From a virus (taxonomy: Duplodnaviria > Heunggongvirae > Uroviricota > Caudoviricetes): a stretch of 4,710 nucleotides of DNA. The stretch spans positions 1-4,710 of the IMG/VR virus record IMGVR_UViG_2917393062_000001; one strand, 5' to 3'. A model generated the notes under the pieces. It saw nothing but the letters and a program-made list of their open reading frames with translations, ran no database searches and was not told the DNA's origin. Position 1 is the first letter of the stretch, and each line of letters begins with the position of its first letter. Made by a program: the position numbers and the translations under genes. Positions 1-4,710 of the stretch are shown here, in pieces.

Positions 1-69
1 TATCTCGTGATCTCTTGAATCTCTGCTGGCGATAGCGTTAATTCGTACATGTGGTCACGTGCCTTACAG

Positions 70-108
70 CATGACCGCCGTCAATATAATCCGGAGATGG
101 CGGTCATG
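70..108. repeat. Hairpin-forming inverted repeat (catgaccgcc 70-79 / ggcggtcatg 99-108, 19-nt loop) overlapping the stop codon of the exonuclease gene
   Basis: 10-bp perfect arms; the distal arm contains the TGA stop (104-106). No U-tract follows on the minus strand, so it is not a canonical terminator. Confidence 0.6.
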
Positions 109-2590
109 GTTGAACATTAAAATCAGCCTGATTTGGGATCAGTTTTTGCCAGATTGCTGAAACTTGTTTTGCCTGGTGGCGTGCATCATCGAGTGCATTG
201 TGAGGTACACCTTCGAATGGAATAGCCGTCCTGACATCGAAGTCCAGGGCTTTTCCCAGCTCAACGATTGTGCGCACATCGCGATCGTTGTAGTAACGCC
301 ACGGGCAGGGGATCCCCTGCCGTTCATATGAACGGCGTAAAATCACATTGTCGAAGTTGGCTCCATTTCCCCAGATTTGGACAAAACTTTCGCCGGAGTT
401 TTCGTTGATAAATTCCCGTAATTGCAGTAGAGCGTCATCTAACGGGATTTCATCGGTAAAAATGGCAGATTGCGCTTCGCGTGATTGCTTCGCCCACCAC
501 TTTATTGCTTTCCGGTCGATGATTCCGCCAGATGTTTCCAGATCGATAGCTTTGCTGAACTCCGGTCCCATCTCTCCGGTTTCGGGATCAAAAAATTTAC
601 CGCCAATAGAGTTGATTGGCGCATCAGGATTTGTTCCCATCGTTTCAAGGTCGACCGACAGGTGACTCCATACTCTGCTGGTGGATGTGGTTTTATGATG
701 ACCGTTCACCTTAACTAAGGGATCTGTCGCCACGCCAGTTTCACTACCGCTGGAGTGGTGATGATCACCGACAGCATTCTCCTTGTGAGGATGTTCAGCA
801 CCTTCCATTTCTTCAGGATTATTTTCCTGAGCTTCAACCTGATTTTCTCCATTGAATGTTTTCTGATATGTCGCGTCGCCCATCACCGCGCCACAGTCAG
901 GGCTGTTGCCGCCGCCGGTCTGATCGCAGGCGGTGCAGATCTTTTCCGGTTCCTGTTGCGCTACTGGTTCAGGTTGTTTCGTTTCTGGCTCGTTTTGTTG
1001 CGTATTTGGGCTGTTTTGTTCCGCTTTCTGGTCGTTCTGTTCCGTTTCTTGCTGGTTCTGGTTCACAGAATCGCGGGTCTGGATCCCCTTAACCCATTTC
1101 GGATCATTCGGGTCGCTAATCCCTGCAACAAATTCACCACGTGATGCAGCGAGCAACTGATTGGCGTCAGGCTGGCTGATATTGGCTGCCTGCATAATTT
1201 TGTTTACTTCGTCAGCGGTAACTTTTACCGGCTCTGGTTGTGCGGTCGTGTCAGATGCACCAGTATTTTGTTGTGAACCTGAGTATGTGCCGTTTTTGCG
1301 GGCAAAATATTCTTCTTTCGTGATTTCAGTAGCCCCCGCAGCCAGCGCCCTGTCCAGGCCAGAAAGTTTGTTTGCGCGACCGTATTTTTCGCCATCCTTA
1401 TCGGTGAAGAGGAAATAGAACGGCCCCTCACGCTCTACAGATGGTTCGACTTCCACTTTGCATTCGGTTTTTTCGTTGTCCGGAATTGCCGTTTCCACTG
1501 CATCAGCTTCTGGTACTGGCGACGGGAGAGTATTAGTTGTGCTCTGATTTGTTCCTTCATCTTCAAATACGCCCTTTGTAGTCAGGTATTCAGTAATGTA
1601 TTTGCTCAGCGCCACGGGATCCTTGTGAATGTCGATCGGACGTTCACGAACAAGACCAAAAATCGTCTGACGAGTGTAGCGAATGGCATCAGGCTGTTTG
1701 CGCATTGATGCGGAGATGCGCTTCCAGTCTTCGCGATCTTTGGCGATAACTTCATTTTTTGCCCAGCGGTGGATGTTGCCGTCAATGTTTCCGGCATCCA
1801 CGTCTCCAGGCCAGAGAGCGTAGGCCAGTTCGTCGTCCAGCGTTTTCCATGTCTGCTTGTATTCGCGACGAATGGTAGCAGTGACAGGGGGGATTTTTCC
1901 CGCCGGGTTTTCAGTGTGCTGTCGGTTGACTTTGGCGCGGGCAAGATCAACAACAGAAGTATATGCACCACCTTCTTTGCGCTCCTTTTCCAGGCGTTTT
2001 TTACGGTCGAGAAAATATGCCTGAACGTCGGGCCATTTGGCGGTTGGTTTTAAATCACGTCTGGCATCGTTGATGTATTCAATCTGACGTTCCGGATACA
2101 TGGCGTTAATTTCTTTAGTCCGGATAATTGCCTCTGCGAGGTGTCCGTCAAAGGTCATCATGTCGTCATCGCCAAGAAGCCCGCTTGCGTTGATGACCAT
2201 ATCCACGGTGACGTTTTCATGTGCGCCAAACTTAACGAGAACAGCGGCCTGTTTGTCGTCGGATAACTGATCAAAGTTAACAATTTCTGTATTCGGCTCT
2301 GGTTCGACCGGGACAAAGGAAGACGATCCCTCATCCCAGCGGTTTTCCTGCATATATTCGGTATCCCAGGAATCAATGGCAGGGCGGGGCATGCCAGGTT
2401 TATCCTCACAGACAAGAAATTTATAAGCGCAGTCCTGAGCTGCCGGATATTGCTCCAGGAATTGCCATGCAAATTTTGCACGGGCGCGGCGCTCGTCGCC
2501 GGCTTCAATGGCAGTGGCTACAGCAACTGCACCTTCTTCCTTTATTGCCTGTTCGTCCGGAATGGCGGCGCAAATAAAGACTTTACTCAT
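104..2590 (-). CDS. Large prophage exonuclease (828 aa), RecE-related mosaic: uncharacterised N-terminal region, Q/N/E/P-rich linker with a Cys cluster, C-terminal DnaQ-like (DEDDh) 3'-5' exonuclease domain
   Basis: Uninterrupted 2487-nt ORF. ATG at 2590-2588 is preceded by GAGG 10 nt upstream (minus strand ...aatGAGGttaaaacaaaATG). C-terminal motifs read directly from the translation: Exo I VDLET (D647/E649, nt 644-652) followed by INSIGG; Exo II GNGANFD (D747, nt 350-352); Exo III HNALDDA (H797/D802, nt 185-202). The central segment (LLAASRGEFVAGISDPNDPKWVKGIQTRDSVNQ...CTACDQTGGGNSPDCGAVMGDATYQ...) closely resembles, from memory, the linker of Rac RecE (exonuclease VIII). Internal ORFs on either strand look like low-complexity junk. 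Confidence 0.85.
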   Translation of the reverse strand: MSKVFICAAIPDEQAIKEEGAVAVATAIEAGDERRARAKFAWQFLEQYPAAQDCAYKFLVCEDKPGMPRPAIDSWDTEYMQENRWDEGSSSFVPVEPEPNTEIVNFDQLSDDKQAAVLVKFGAHENVTVDMVINASGLLGDDDMMTFDGHLAEAIIRTKEINAMYPERQIEYINDARRDLKPTAKWPDVQAYFLDRKKRLEKERKEGGAYTSVVDLARAKVNRQHTENPAGKIPPVTATIRREYKQTWKTLDDELAYALWPGDVDAGNIDGNIHRWAKNEVIAKDREDWKRISASMRKQPDAIRYTRQTIFGLVRERPIDIHKDPVALSKYITEYLTTKGVFEDEGTNQSTTNTLPSPVPEADAVETAIPDNEKTECKVEVEPSVEREGPFYFLFTDKDGEKYGRANKLSGLDRALAAGATEITKEEYFARKNGTYSGSQQNTGASDTTAQPEPVKVTADEVNKIMQAANISQPDANQLLAASRGEFVAGISDPNDPKWVKGIQTRDSVNQNQQETEQNDQKAEQNSPNTQQNEPETKQPEPVAQQEPEKICTACDQTGGGNSPDCGAVMGDATYQKTFNGENQVEAQENNPEEMEGAEHPHKENAVGDHHHSSGSETGVATDPLVKVNGHHKTTSTSRVWSHLSVDLETMGTNPDAPINSIGGKFFDPETGEMGPEFSKAIDLETSGGIIDRKAIKWWAKQSREAQSAIFTDEIPLDDALLQLREFINENSGESFVQIWGNGANFDNVILRRSYERQGIPCPWRYYNDRDVRTIVELGKALDFDVRTAIPFEGVPHNALDDARHQAKQVSAIWQKLIPNQADFNVQP

Positions 2591-2683
2591 TTTGTTTTAA
2601 CCTCATTACAGATTTAAGGGTGAACAAATCCCTGCCATTGCTGGCATATAAAAATGAAACCGGATATTTATTACGGTGCTGGT

Positions 2684-2875
2684 TTAAAGCCCTGCCGGGA
2701 CTTCGTTATTATCCATGCGAATAACTTTATCAACCGGATAACAGTTGCCGGGAATTTTCTGTTCCGCTGCGGCAGCCATGCACTCTTTCATTGAACCATA
2801 TATACCCGTAACCACATCAACCGGTTCGCCCGTATTAAGAAAAACGGTCAGAGTGAGAGCAATAGCAGTATTCAT
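2684..2875 (-). CDS. Small hypothetical protein (63 aa) with a hydrophobic, signal-peptide-like N-terminus (MNTAIALTLTVFLNTG...) and two Cys
   Basis: ORF in the same frame as track ORF 2684..2929, but I prefer the internal ATG at 2875-2873 because it has AGGA 8 nt upstream and overlaps the upstream stop as ATGA (translational coupling). The longer 81-aa version has no comparable ribosome-binding site. Confidence 0.5.
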   Translation of the reverse strand: MNTAIALTLTVFLNTGEPVDVVTGIYGSMKECMAAAAEQKIPGNCYPVDKVIRMDNNEVPAGL

Positions 2876-3060
2876 TGCCAGTATCCTTTTTGCATCAGGC
2901 GTGAACGGGCCAGCATTGAAGCAATGCATACCTTATTTAATAAATTCGGTTCGCGCTTTATCTGGTTAATGGCATCTTCAATAAACTGTTTTTTGCCAGT
3001 AATAACGCCAATTTCAAAACGAGTTTCAGGCGTAGTGGAATTGAGTAATAACGTTTCCAT
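2872..3060 (-). CDS. Small hypothetical prophage early protein (62 aa)
   Basis: ORF with ATG at 3060-3058 preceded by GAGGA (plus-strand tcctc 3068-3072) 7 nt upstream. Stop TGA overlaps the next ATG (ATGA at 2875-2872). Same orientation as and immediately upstream of the exonuclease gene, as for the small kil/racC-class genes of Rac-like prophages. No family recognised. Confidence 0.5.
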   Translation of the reverse strand: METLLLNSTTPETRFEIGVITGKKQFIEDAINQIKREPNLLNKVCIASMLARSRLMQKGYWQ

Positions 3061-3077
3061 TATCGCGTCCTCAGGAA

Positions 3078-3222
3078 TGAATTTTGTGATGCGGTGCCTG
3101 GTGCCTCCAGGTGACGTTAACCAGTTAACAATTAACGCCGGATGTATAAGGAGTTTCGTTACGCCAGTAAAAGGTCACTTTACTGTTTTAACTGAGCCGC
3201 ATTCACCGCATCACAAAATTCA
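3078..3222. repeat. Perfect 19-bp inverted repeat, arms tgaattttgtgatgcggtg (3078-3096) and caccgcatcacaaaattca (3204-3222), separated by 107 bp
   Basis: Exact reverse complements, checked base by base. The proximal arm ends 18 nt upstream of the ATG of the 62-aa gene (3060). Confidence 0.8.
3116..3136. repeat. Cluster of three TTAAC motifs (two full GTTAAC palindromes at 3116-3121 and 3125-3130, plus ATTAAC at 3131-3136)
   Basis: acgTTAACcagTTAACaaTTAACgcc read directly; lies inside the spacer of the 19-bp inverted repeat. Confidence 0.6.
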
Positions 3223-3223
3223 C

Positions 3224-3269
3224 TTTAAAAAGGGCGGGTATCACAGGGAAAACAAAACGGATACCCGCC
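3224..3269 (-). terminator. Terminator-like hairpin in the leader of the leftward small-gene/exonuclease operon: 10-bp GC-rich stem (ggcgggtatc 3233-3242 / gatacccgcc 3260-3269), 17-nt loop, then TTTTT on the minus strand
   Basis: Perfect 10-bp inverted repeat. On the minus strand the stem is followed by cTTTTTaaag (plus aaaaa 3227-3231). The orientation is such that it would stop or attenuate leftward transcription entering the operon. Confidence 0.4.
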
Positions 3270-3422
3270 AAAAGGTAATCAACATGGGTTGTTGTAGCTG
3301 ATTGCCACAACCGGAAGCGCACGGACTAAGATGCCGGCGGCACGCAACAGAGGGAGAAGTGACTTCGCCGTGCGCTTTCGTGTTGTGTGCCTGCTTTTAA
3401 CCACGTCAGGCGAGGTGGTTCC

Positions 3423-3462
3423 TGTTATTCCCCAACAACAAGAAATTTGTATAATCCGGATA
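3423..3462 (+). promoter_or_regulatory. Candidate sigma70 promoter for the plus-strand zinc-ribbon gene: perfect -10 TATAAT at 3450-3455 with TG immediately upstream; weak -35 (TTATTC/TGTTAT around 3423-3430)
   Basis: TATAAT read directly at 3450-3455 (tttgTATAATccgg), 35-60 nt upstream of the candidate start codons. The -35 is poor, so activity may depend on the adjacent TG or on a factor binding the flanking direct repeats. Confidence 0.4.
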
Positions 3463-3478
3463 TCCCCAACAACGAGAA
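3429..3478 (+). repeat. 16-bp direct repeat tccccaacaac(a/g)agaa at 3429-3444 and 3463-3478 (15/16 identical, 34-bp period) flanking the TATAAT -10 element
   Basis: Read directly; the two copies bracket the -10 hexamer at 3450-3455. Confidence 0.7.
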
Positions 3479-3513
3479 GAGTATGTAACGTGATAGTTGA
3501 GTTCTCAGCAGCA

Positions 3514-3945
3514 ATGTCGGCAATCAAAGAAACTGCGGTAATGGCAAAGGGTATTCTGAATGCCAAAAATCAAACTGAGATAAATTCCGCTGTCAGCGAT
3601 ATGCTTTCAAAACTTACGTCTGTTCAGTTTGAATGCGTATCGCTCATTGAGATGGTGCGCTCTTATCAGGAAGAAGCCGCATCTCTCAAAGCAAAAATTG
3701 CAGAGATAGAAGACTTTCAGCAACAGGCGGAAGGTTACAAACTTAACAAGCTTGATTCTGGAACTCTTGTGTATTCCAAGAAGCAATTTATAGGCGATAC
3801 TGAGATAACAGTGCATCTTTGCCCACAATGTTTTGGAAAAAAGGTAATATCTGTACTGCAACCAATGGAAATAATGCGCCTTGATGCTCATTTTCGTACT
3901 TTTTGCCCCGCTTGCAATAATAAGTTCTGGATGAACTCAAGATAA
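3514..3945 (+). CDS. Coiled-coil / zinc-ribbon protein (143 aa from ATG 3514; 151 aa if in-frame GTG 3490 is used); candidate accessory (exclusion/defence or regulatory) moron
   Basis: Only convincing plus-strand ORF. Translation is protein-like, whereas the antisense ORFs (3279..3566, 3607..3891) are W/Y/F/C-rich junk. The N-terminal ~75 aa are heptad-like and charged (SLIEMVRSYQEEAASLKAKIAEIEDFQQQAEGYKL). The C-terminus carries HLCPQC...(25 aa)...FCPACNN, i.e. CxxC-x25-CxxC. GC is about 40% by hand count of a 60-nt sample, versus about 53% in a sample of the exonuclease gene. A perfect TATAAT lies at 3450-3455. Start codon uncertain: no strong SD before ATG 3514 or ATG 3541; GTG 3490 has a weak GAGAAGAG 8 nt upstream. 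The 204-aa track ORF from 3331 runs through the promoter and repeats and is rejected. Confidence 0.65.
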   Translation: MSAIKETAVMAKGILNAKNQTEINSAVSDMLSKLTSVQFECVSLIEMVRSYQEEAASLKAKIAEIEDFQQQAEGYKLNKLDSGTLVYSKKQFIGDTEITVHLCPQCFGKKVISVLQPMEIMRLDAHFRTFCPACNNKFWMNSR

Positions 3946-3990
3946 TTAACCGCTTAATAAGTTGGGACTATCCAGATTTTTAAAGAACAT

Positions 3991-4014
3991 GCCGGATGCT
4001 TATCCGTGTCCGGC
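3991..4014 (-). terminator. GC-rich hairpin (gccgga-N12-tccggc) between the convergent 40-aa gene and the zinc-ribbon gene; possible terminator for leftward transcription; REP-like motifs
   Basis: Stem gccgga (3991-3996) / tccggc (4009-4014) with a 12-nt loop. On the minus strand it is followed by aTGTTCTTTaaaaa (moderately U-rich); on the plus strand no T-run follows. Contains GCCGGATGC and TTATCCG, which echo the E. coli REP consensus, but it is shorter than a canonical REP. Confidence 0.3.
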
Positions 4015-4063
4015 GCCCGCACTTCATCTGTGGAGAAGTGCTTGAGCTCATTGGTCAGTAGTT

Positions 4064-4186
4064 TTAATCACTCGCGAAACTGGAAAGCGCCTGTTTAAAC
4101 TCACTGAAGCTGAGAGCTTCTTCGCCTTCGGCAAGGCCTTCGAAGTATTCTTCGTAAGCCTTTTCCATGATTGCGTCGAAATCCAT
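4064..4186 (-). CDS. Tiny acidic hypothetical protein (40 aa: MDFDAIMEKAYEEYFEGLAEGEEALSFSEFKQALSSFASD); alternative in-frame starts GTG 4195 or ATG 4228
   Basis: Hand translation of the minus strand (not in the supplied track, too short). ATG at 4186-4184 has AGGTGA 5 nt upstream and lies 1 nt after the stop of the 51-aa gene (TGAtATG). Followed by a GC hairpin at 3991-4014. Position and size match the second tiny gene downstream of the repressor in Rac/Qin-type prophages (ydaG/ydfB class), but the sequence itself is not recognised. Confidence 0.4.
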   Translation of the reverse strand: MDFDAIMEKAYEEYFEGLAEGEEALSFSEFKQALSSFASD

Positions 4187-4187
4187 A

Positions 4188-4343
4188 TCACTCACCTGAG
4201 TTTCTTTCCAGCCAGCGACGGGCACCATTTTCGGTTTTAAACGTTTTGCTTTTGGTATACGTCATCGCGGTGAACGTACCGTCCTGGTTAGGAAACACGC
4301 CGTATGCCAGAGATTCGTTGTTGCCAAGATCGATAGTATCCAT
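4188..4343 (-). CDS. Tiny prophage immunity-region protein, 51 aa (MDTIDLGNNESLAYGVFPNQDGTFTAMTYTKSKTFKTENGARRWLERNSGE), YdfA/YdaF-like
   Basis: Same frame as track ORF 4188..4436, but the start is placed at ATG 4343-4341, which has GAGG 6 nt upstream (aaatGAGGtcaacATG). The track's ATG at 4436 lies inside the predicted promoter spacer. Size (51 aa) and position directly downstream of a DicA-like repressor match the ydfA (Qin) / ydaF (Rac) class as I remember it; not verified by search. Confidence 0.55.
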   Translation of the reverse strand: MDTIDLGNNESLAYGVFPNQDGTFTAMTYTKSKTFKTENGARRWLERNSGE

Positions 4344-4420
4344 GTTGACCTCATTTCCCCTTAACGCCAGGGTGGCGGAACTGTTTGCTGAGAACACCGT
4401 GCGGTGTCTTGATGGAAGAT

Positions 4421-4449
4421 AATTTAGTTTTCTCATGGTAATAGGTCAA
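4421..4449 (-). promoter_or_regulatory. Candidate sigma70 promoter for the 51-aa/40-aa gene pair: -35 TTGACC (plus ggtcaa 4444-4449), 17-nt spacer, -10 TAAATT (plus aattta 4421-4426)
   Basis: Read on the minus strand: cacTTGACCtattaccatgagaaaacTAAATTatc. The -35 matches consensus 5/6 and the -10 4/6 with ideal spacing. The predicted start is about 70 nt upstream of ATG 4343. Confidence 0.4.
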
Positions 4450-4469
4450 GTGTTTTTGATGAGAAAACT
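4426..4469. promoter_or_regulatory. Perfect 11-bp inverted repeat (agttttctcat at 4426-4436, atgagaaaact at 4459-4469; 22-bp spacer) bracketing the -35 element; candidate repressor operator
   Basis: Arms are exact reverse complements and sit on either side of, and partly within, the predicted promoter immediately downstream of the DicA-like repressor gene. Confidence 0.45.
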
Positions 4470-4477
4470 CAATGTTT

Positions 4478-4516
4478 AATGCAAAACAAAGCCAATACAT
4501 TGAAATGTAAGGCTTT
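4478..4516 (-). terminator. Candidate intrinsic terminator after the DicA-like gene: composite hairpin (aaagcc/ggcttt outer stem, tacatt/aatgta inner stem) followed on the minus strand by GTTTTG
   Basis: Plus 4488-4516 is aaagcc-aa-tacatt-ga-aatgta-a-ggcttt. On the minus strand the hairpin is followed by ggcTTTGTTTTGc (U-rich), about 20 nt after the repressor stop codon. AT-rich stem, so strength is uncertain. Confidence 0.35.
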
Positions 4517-4536
4517 AAAATTTGTGAAGGAGTGGG

Positions 4537-4710
4537 TTATTGATGTTTGTTACGTTTGCGAGCTTCTAGTAGCTCGGTAAATAGGCGATTAAAATTCTCA
4601 ACACGGGCACGGAGTTCGCTGATTTGTGCTTGCTGCTCTGATTTTGGAAGTGCGCGATACAATCGCAACATCTCCAACTCATCTTCCGATAAGTCTAAGG
4701 AGCTGTTGAG
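4537..4710 (-). CDS. dicA: DicA-like prophage repressor, C-terminal 57 codons (gene starts beyond the right edge of the window)
   Basis: Minus-strand translation runs open from the window edge to TAA at 4539-4537: LNSSLDLSEDELEMLRLYRALPKSEQQAQISELRARVENFNRLFTELLEARKRNKHQ. This matches, from memory, the C-terminal dimerisation tail of E. coli DicA (..LSPKELELLELFNALPESEQDTQLAEMRARVKNFNKLFEELLKARQR..). The gene is missed by the ORF track because it is partial. Confidence 0.65.
   Translation of the reverse strand, partial: LNSSLDLSEDELEMLRLYRALPKSEQQAQISELRARVENFNRLFTELLEARKRNKHQ

Follow-up and report, generated by a model that had tools for sequence, protein, structure and literature searches.

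A long RNA helix in front of a prophage dicB homologue encloses a divergent STnc100-like domain and is probably an RNase III processing stem

A long-range RNA helix in the dicB leader

The window analyzed here, a stretch of 4,710 nt from a virus of the Caudoviricetes (IMG/VR record IMGVR_UViG_2917393062_000001, positions 1 to 4,710), contains a perfect inverted repeat in front of a homologue of dicB, a gene for an inhibitor of cell division. According to our analysis, the arms of this repeat pair in RNA, on the leftward (minus-strand) transcript, and not in DNA. The resulting helix, P1, closes a multi-hairpin domain of about 150 nt that lies between a terminator at the position of the small RNA DicF and the Shine-Dalgarno sequence of dicB, and the enclosed domain is a divergent relative of STnc100. 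We posit that the repeat is probably an RNase III processing stem homologous to the dicF-dicB site of Escherichia coli K-12, and that the window copy would, by homology with that site, be cut by RNase III.

The repeat search of the window placed the two arms of 19 nt each at 3078-3096 and 3204-3222, 100% complementary and with a spacer of 107 nt, which confirms the coordinates of a preliminary description of this DNA exactly. We shuffled the window 100 times with its dinucleotides preserved; the longest perfect inverted repeat of a shuffle then measured 10-15 nt at any distance (mode 11) and 8-15 nt when the arms were no more than 300 nt apart. Since its 19 nt exceed the shuffle maximum of 15 nt, the repeat is real and not due to chance, as had been claimed.

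On the minus strand the pairing grows by G3223.U3077 and A3224-U3076 to an uninterrupted helix of 21 bp, made up of 20 Watson-Crick pairs and one G.U pair. Its 5' strand in RNA sense is AGUGAAUUUUGUGAUGCGGUG (3204-3224, with the perfect arm at 3204-3222) and its 3' strand is CACCGCAUCACAAAAUUCAUU (3076-3096, with the perfect arm at 3078-3096). Minus-strand RNA from 3078 to 3222 folds at -57 kcal/mol (z = -7.2), with the arms as closing helix and three hairpins within, and P1 is found in the MFE as well as the centroid structures, also when flanks are added. In RNA sense the 3' arm ends at 3078, 17 nt ahead of the A of the ATG at 3060; the distance of 18 nt between stem and start codon given previously was right to within one base.

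Operon context

The minus strand of the window carries an early-left operon of a Rac/Qin-like lambdoid prophage, and the best E. coli matches to the region are only about 85-88% identical. We found no promoter belonging to the repeat element itself, which is expected because the element lies inside a long transcript. The preliminary description, which had found no convincing sigma70 promoter for the leftward operon in this region, holds in this respect for the element, and is to be supplemented by a promoter-like site (4421-4449, minus strand; TTGACC, 17 nt, TAAATT) about 1.2 kb upstream of the repeat. This site is overlapped by an arm of another inverted repeat, of 15 nt (4422-4436 / 4459-4473), and the stretch 4421-4473 is probably the early-left promoter together with its operator.

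The promoter-like site is followed by a DUF1391 gene (4188-4436, minus strand). Further downstream, 4 nt upstream of P1, lies an intrinsic terminator (3227-3269, minus strand) consisting of a GC-rich hairpin at 3232-3269 and a U-run at 3227-3231, which sits at the position of the DicF/KilS small RNAs. Behind P1 follow the Shine-Dalgarno sequence GAGGA (3068-3072) and the ATG (3058-3060) of the DicB homologue, together spanning 3058-3072 on the minus strand. The DicB homologue has 62 aa and an intact frame (2872-3060, minus strand; Pfam PF05358, 99 bits). Next on the same strand are a DUF1482 gene and a gene for an 828-aa protein with a C-terminal 3'-5' exonuclease domain.

The small-RNA position itself (3227-3300, minus strand) has a DicF/KilS-like terminator and no match to the Rfam DicF model, and its 5' part (CCAUGUUGAUUACC) is common to loci L214 and L204. 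The segment 3227-3300 may encode a DicF-position small RNA with a different seed. Upstream of it lies a 13-nt inverted repeat (3312-3324 / 3368-3380) with 92% complementarity, whose sequence CCGUGCGCUUCCGGUUGUGGCAA is also present in Qin of K-12. The region of Rac that corresponds to it contains a delta-rnc RNA-seq site (1418510), 8 nt ahead of the 5' end of KilS, and the repeat may be the second RNase III site of the operon. Still further upstream, the conserved 25-nt motif CCACCUCGCCUGACGUGGUUAAAAG occurs at 3394-3418 on the minus strand and is followed by CAGGC. The complementarities CCAC/GUGG and GCCUG/CAGGC are interleaved here, and the motif could form an H-type pseudoknot together with CAGGC. 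The same motif is present upstream of STnc100-like copies in 51 of 245 loci. An ORF of 151 aa (3490-3945, plus strand) runs against the leftward transcript, in the place where Rac has sieB. Its match to SLATT_5 is weak and sub-threshold (E = 0.0018), its C-terminal part has two CxxC pairs, and it could serve in exclusion or defence.

Conservation of the helix among relatives

Relatives of the element were gathered by pattern scans of one genome per species and of viral contigs, and 27 distinct copies from Escherichia, Citrobacter, Lelliottia, Scandinavium, Buttiauxella and others were aligned (alignment A1). Over the 21 pairs of P1 in these 27 copies, 98.4% of cells are standard pairs, and 10 of the 21 pairs display compensatory changes with both sides altered. 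None of 500 shuffles reached the observed pairing and covariation values. When the 3' partner was slid by 1-3 columns as a control, 35-45% of cells were paired. The same helix was predicted independently by RNAalifold. Because G.U accounts for 42 cells of P1 and A.C for 5, pairing has been maintained on the RNA of dicB sense rather than on the complementary strand. The covariation of the arms, which had been proposed as a check, and the strand-specific G.U pairs thus bear out the suggestion of a long-range stem in the leftward leader.

The same alignment bears on the reading that the repeat is an element at the DNA level, be it operator half-sites of a looping regulator, a cruciform, the terminal repeats of a small transposon (MITE) or the boundaries of a promoter segment that inverts. 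The repeat is indeed perfect as DNA and flanks a discrete segment of 107 bp, and in some phages BLAST matches start and stop near the arms. However, the arm sequences differ between genera with their complementarity kept, G.U pairs are tolerated that would be A.C mismatches in DNA, and stand-alone members of the family have arms of only 6-9 bp. Neither a recombinase nor a repressor gene adjoins the element in the window. We consider a DNA-level element extremely unlikely.

The individual candidates of this kind were rejected as follows. Paired operators for a looping regulator, one of the suggestions of the preliminary description, fail in view of the ten compensatory pairs and the 42 G.U against 5 A.C cells. 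The suggested cruciform falls for the same change of arms under preserved complementarity and the same tolerance of G.U, and the inner part of P1 is the closing helix of an RNA family described by a covariance model. A spacer of 107 bp moreover strongly disfavours cruciform extrusion. As to a transposon (MITE), the flanks (...caggaa/TGAATT and AATTCA/cttt) are without target-site duplication, and no empty site was found. For an invertible switch, a search anchored on the downstream start codon gave 76 copies in forward and 0 in inverted orientation.

The second dicB of locus L133 (about 5800-5860) is the only one we found without the element, and its junction with the coding sequence upstream falls within the 3' arm (AAAATTCATTG), which suggests a role of the conserved arms as joints for mosaic recombination between prophages.

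The length of P1 is linked to its surroundings. The helix is long (17-22 bp) in 46 distinct copies of the subfamily to which the window copy belongs, and 41 of these 46 lie directly behind a terminator of the DicF/KilS type, as opposed to none of the 13 copies with a short P1. Downstream of the long-helix copies, a short gene (e.g., for DicB or KilR) starts within 17-60 nt. In the canonical STnc100 copies that we recovered, the uninterrupted closing helix comprises 5-12 bp, mostly 6-9 (median 7), which is about what would be left of a long P1 after a cut by RNase III. The restriction of long helices to positions behind small-RNA terminators supports our hypothesis of a processing stem. Matches to the element are present in 4,642 of 5,426 complete E. 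coli genomes.

A divergent relative of STnc100 within the helix

An Rfam scan of the window returned one match, STnc100 (RF02076), at 3083-3220 on the minus strand (E = 0.003), with a score of 27.9 bits that lies below the curated gathering score of 47 bits. For DicF, C4 and isrK no match was obtained in the window at E up to 1. The outer helix of the STnc100 covariance model coincides with the inner part of the repeat. Intact relatives of the window copy score 28-42 bits, with the nearest one at 42, and canonical copies 50-90 bits. STnc100, an RNA associated with prophages, is expressed in EHEC, and PasD has been related to it in a 2026 preprint (10.64898/2026.05.13.724894).

Like these prophage-borne structured small RNAs of Enterobacterales, the window element is located in a prophage, has GGUGAAU on its 5' side, pairs GGUG with CACC in the closing helix and carries the 3' motif UCACCNGGAGGCACCNGGCACC with a 5-bp hairpin. 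This motif (3093-3114, minus strand) runs on into the closing helix, and its 3' end overlaps the inner bases of the 3' arm. The conserved 3' stretch UCACCUGGAGGCACCAGG (3097-3112, minus strand), seen in the Rfam alignment, holds the hairpin P5 (3097-3111) and leads directly into the 3' strand of P1. Motif and P5 together are the signature of STnc100, and a U-A pair within them is swapped to G-C in 6 of the 27 sequences. A 20-nt motif, CACCNGGAGGCACCNGGCAC, finds more than 100 loci in Enterobacterales, most of which, among those tested, are bona fide STnc100 with 50-90 bits.

Following the RNA from its 5' side, P1 is succeeded by an AAU linker and the remnant of hairpin P2, GCGGCUCAG (3192-3203, minus strand; from alignment A1). 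The next hairpin, P3 (GUUAAAACAGUAAAGUGACCUUUUACUGGCGUAAC, 3158-3192, minus strand), is present in the MFE and centroid structures and varies in length and sequence among relatives. Hairpin P4 (GGCGUUAAUUGUUAACUGGUUAACGUC, 3113-3139, minus strand) is seen in the fold and by covariation: 94% of the cells in its 8 aligned pairs are paired, and 5 of the pairs have changed on both sides. It contains the TTAAC cluster that had been noticed between the arms, which is therefore real and part of a hairpin. The conserved core may bear some likeness to the 3' domain of 16S rRNA or to a tRNA acceptor/T-arm minihelix (a 7-bp P1 stacked on a 5-bp P5).

The window copy forms a divergent subfamily with the copies of K-12 Qin, K-12 Rac and the phages P7 and D6. 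The P2 stem of this subfamily is of the type UGCG/CGCG, whereas canonical STnc100 has CCCC/GGGG; the loop motif CUNAGCG is retained. In 58 distinct copies of the subfamily we found neither a promoter of their own at the start of P1 nor a terminator within 90 nt. By comparison, among 83 canonical STnc100 copies, 9 have a sigma-70 promoter that places the transcript start at the first base of the helix and 20 have a terminator within the same distance. Lacking both signals, the subfamily copies are embedded in longer transcripts, and the window element is not a stand-alone small-RNA gene. It further differs from STnc100 in the length of P1 (21 bp versus 6-9 bp), in its location within an mRNA leader, in its half-deleted P2 of the UGCG/CGCG type and in its sub-threshold score.

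Partial loss of the core in the window copy

The window copy lacks 14 nt that read CGCACGCGGAACAG in its relatives, where they are flanked by two CAG repeats, and the junction is at 3191-3194 on the minus strand. Through this deletion P2 has lost its 3' strand, and the closing helix of P3 its 5' strand. GGUGAAU and the 5' half of P2 are kept, and the 3' half, which would complete P2 with its CUNAGCG loop, is gone. The segment is retained in all 58 other distinct subfamily copies, so that the deletion is unique among 59. In a pattern search, the junction was absent from IMG/VR, the JGI metagenomes and the 5,426 E. coli genomes, and an exact look-up of the window DicB protein for closer relatives found nothing. 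The enclosed domain may be defective in the window copy, with P1 intact.

One could go further and regard the window element as a functionless relic, with a core broken by the deletion and perfect arms that persist because the deletion is recent. The loss of both strands named above, its uniqueness among 59 copies and its absence from three large collections favour such a view, as does the Rfam score of 27.9 bits compared with 42 for the nearest intact relative. The loss of part of the conserved core is likewise a point against a working processing stem, since the window copy may be a decaying relic. On the other hand, P1, P4, P5, the terminator, the Shine-Dalgarno sequence and the dicB frame are all preserved. 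The notion of a relic is also compatible with cleavage, because a duplex of such length should be cut by RNase III whatever its interior, and only the function of the domain is in dispute. We rate it as decidedly improbable.

Reported RNase III processing of the homologous site in E. coli K-12

The genome of MG1655 has this element between dicF (1649382-1649434) and dicB (1649609), and also between kilS and kilR. The dicF-dicB region of Qin runs from the terminator through 4 nt, the 5' arm, the folded domain, the 3' arm and 17 nt to the dicB ATG, and the window shows the homologous succession of small-RNA terminator, arm, core, arm and dicB start. The Qin arms are nearly identical to those of the window (UGAAUUUUGUGAUG[U/C]GGUG), except that two of their pairs are G.U, which in the window are C-G and G-C. 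Other differences are the upstream small RNA of the window without a match to the DicF model, the 14-nt deletion in its core and its Rac-like gene order, with the DUF1391 gene and the opposite-strand ORF at the sieB position. The kilS-kilR region of Rac shares the KilS terminator, the same 5' arm, an STnc100-like core, a 3' arm and the start of a gene for an FtsZ inhibitor. It differs in a bulged A and a U.G pair in the 3' arm and in having kilR instead of dicB downstream. KilS itself (L124 711-766, MG1655 Rac) scores 39 bits against the DicF covariance model, for which the threshold is 48, and from its sequence looks like a diverged DicF relative at the same operon position.

As related by later papers that cite the original work, the full-length dicBF mRNA is cut by RNase III, which gives DicF an alternative 3' end and a length of 72 nt, compared with 53 nt for the terminated form (Faubladier, Cam and Bouche 1990, as cited in PMC5069750, PMC9438474 and PMC2777011, two of which give the 72 nt). 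The third of these papers names the intergenic region of dicF and dicB among the substrates of RNase III. When 19 nt are added to the 53-nt DicF, position 1649453 is reached. This corresponds to L125 654, the tenth base of the 19-nt 5' arm (UGAAUUUUGU^GAUGUGGUG), which in K-12 Qin spans L125 645-663. The exact 3' end of the 53-nt DicF is uncertain by a few bases, and with five U residues included the end still comes to lie inside the arm. By this count, the reported 72-nt end would fall in the K-12 arm that is homologous to the arm of the window.

Two properties of the helix fit the enzyme. A duplex suited to RNase III comprises about 22 bp, or some two helical turns (PMC6212723), a size that the 21-bp P1 has. 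In vivo, the enzyme prefers at least one G-C pair between its two cuts (PMC6212723); the two pairs between the cuts that we infer for the 2-nt stagger are G-C and U-A, which, checked by eye, agrees with this preference. A delta-rnc RNA-seq table lists position 1649470 with 26 reads versus 0 in the wild type, 17 nt beyond the inferred cut. This signal is weak, with 26 reads in a long and noisy list, but consistent with a cut in the arm. The only delta-rnc site listed for the Rac region, 1418510, was discarded as support, as it maps 8 nt upstream of the KilS 5' end, outside of the element and not in the helix. A study of the dicBF operon from 2023, however, describes RNase III only as generating the 5' end of a 190-nt DicF precursor, upstream of dicF, which speaks against a processing stem between dicF and dicB. 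The dicBF operon appears to have two RNase III sites.

For the window, we propose that most leftward transcripts would stop at the terminator at 3227-3269 and that those reading through would fold the 21-bp P1, a perfect duplex of about two helical turns and of the size that RNase III measures. The enzyme would then cut both strands of P1 near the middle, the 5' strand between 3213 and 3212, as predicted by homology with K-12, and the 3' strand between 3086 and 3085, as predicted by the rule that RNase III leaves 3' overhangs of 2 nt. The upstream small RNA would thereby receive an alternative, trimmed 3' end. The folded domain would be detached with about 9 bp of P1 left, approximately the helix length of canonical STnc100, and the dicB mRNA would start with a 5'-monophosphate leader of about 25 nt. 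Such a cut may also have consequences for the synthesis of DicB. The non-standard control mechanism envisaged in the preliminary description would thus most likely be ordinary RNase III processing, of the kind that the citing papers report for the homologous dicBF site of K-12. Similar duplexes of about two turns around a structured RNA are known from the stalks of rRNA operons and from the metY-nusA-infB leader (Regnier and Grunberg-Manago 1989, as cited in PMC2777011), where, according to the citing paper, cleavage frees a stable RNA and provides the downstream message with a new 5' end. The analogy is one of mechanism, and there is no sequence relationship to the window.

P1 might alternatively serve in this phage as a structural clamp only and not as a nuclease site. 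It would then force the leader domain to fold separately both from the terminator tail, which is rich in U, and from the purine-rich ribosome-binding site; a leader so compact would resist Rho and RNase E, and a helix located 6 nt from the Shine-Dalgarno sequence would set the translation of dicB. P1 is very stable and ends just ahead of the Shine-Dalgarno sequence, the terminator tail pairs weakly with GAGG in the MFE folds, and the embedded copies of the subfamily never come with a promoter or terminator of their own, all of which would suit a clamp. So would the G.U-rich extension of P1 by 7-9 bp that covers UUGAGGA in K-12-type copies, but the centroid structure lacks this extension, and in the window copy it is weak. 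A clamp also leaves unexplained why a helix of about 21 bp is found only behind small-RNA terminators, and it ignores the reported RNase III-dependent DicF of 72 nt. We regard a purely structural role as unlikely and retain the processing stem as our preferred interpretation.

Significance and wider occurrence

Our analysis accounts for a conspicuous repeat by a conserved helix in RNA, probably a processing stem, and removes the suggestion of an unusual element of control at the DNA level. An RNase III site at dicF-dicB of K-12 has been known since 1990, as far as the papers citing that work relate it, and in this respect the element is real but largely ordinary. A modest new link is that the spacer from the division-inhibiting small RNAs DicF/KilS to their partner toxin genes dicB/kilR structurally belongs to the STnc100/PasD group of prophage RNAs.

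If RNase III does excise the domain, operons of the dicBF type would yield three products per transcript, and RNAs of the STnc100 type would gain a defined route of biogenesis. We tentatively extend this to the idea, which we hold to be possible though rather doubtful, that the spacers of dicF-dicB and kilS-kilR are more than leaders and encode a third product. RNase III would free from them an STnc100-like RNA, some 125-140 nt long, whose closing helix of about 9 bp would equal that of the stand-alone members of the family. Stand-alone STnc100 members would in that case be made otherwise, either with their own promoter and terminator or beside tRNA genes. Thousands of E. coli prophages would then supply, along with a small RNA and a protein that both inhibit division, a structured RNA that is conserved, and the product from the window would be defective owing to the deletion in its core.

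Members of the family were also observed next to tRNA genes. The P1-like phages P7 (L002 2501-2561) and D6 (L003 2501-2623) have a short-helix copy just upstream of tciA/terB, within the ban operon. These copies are downstream of tRNA genes, which the D6 record annotates on the strand opposite to that given by Rfam. The loci L077 (110-1688), L053 (894-2010), L099 (3717-5512) and L113 (4776-5127) have canonical STnc100 copies arranged in tandem and also alternating with tRNA genes. Only 5-7 nt separate the closing helix, at its 3' end, from the 5' end of a tRNA in L099 and L113, and because of this proximity tRNA processing would also release these copies.
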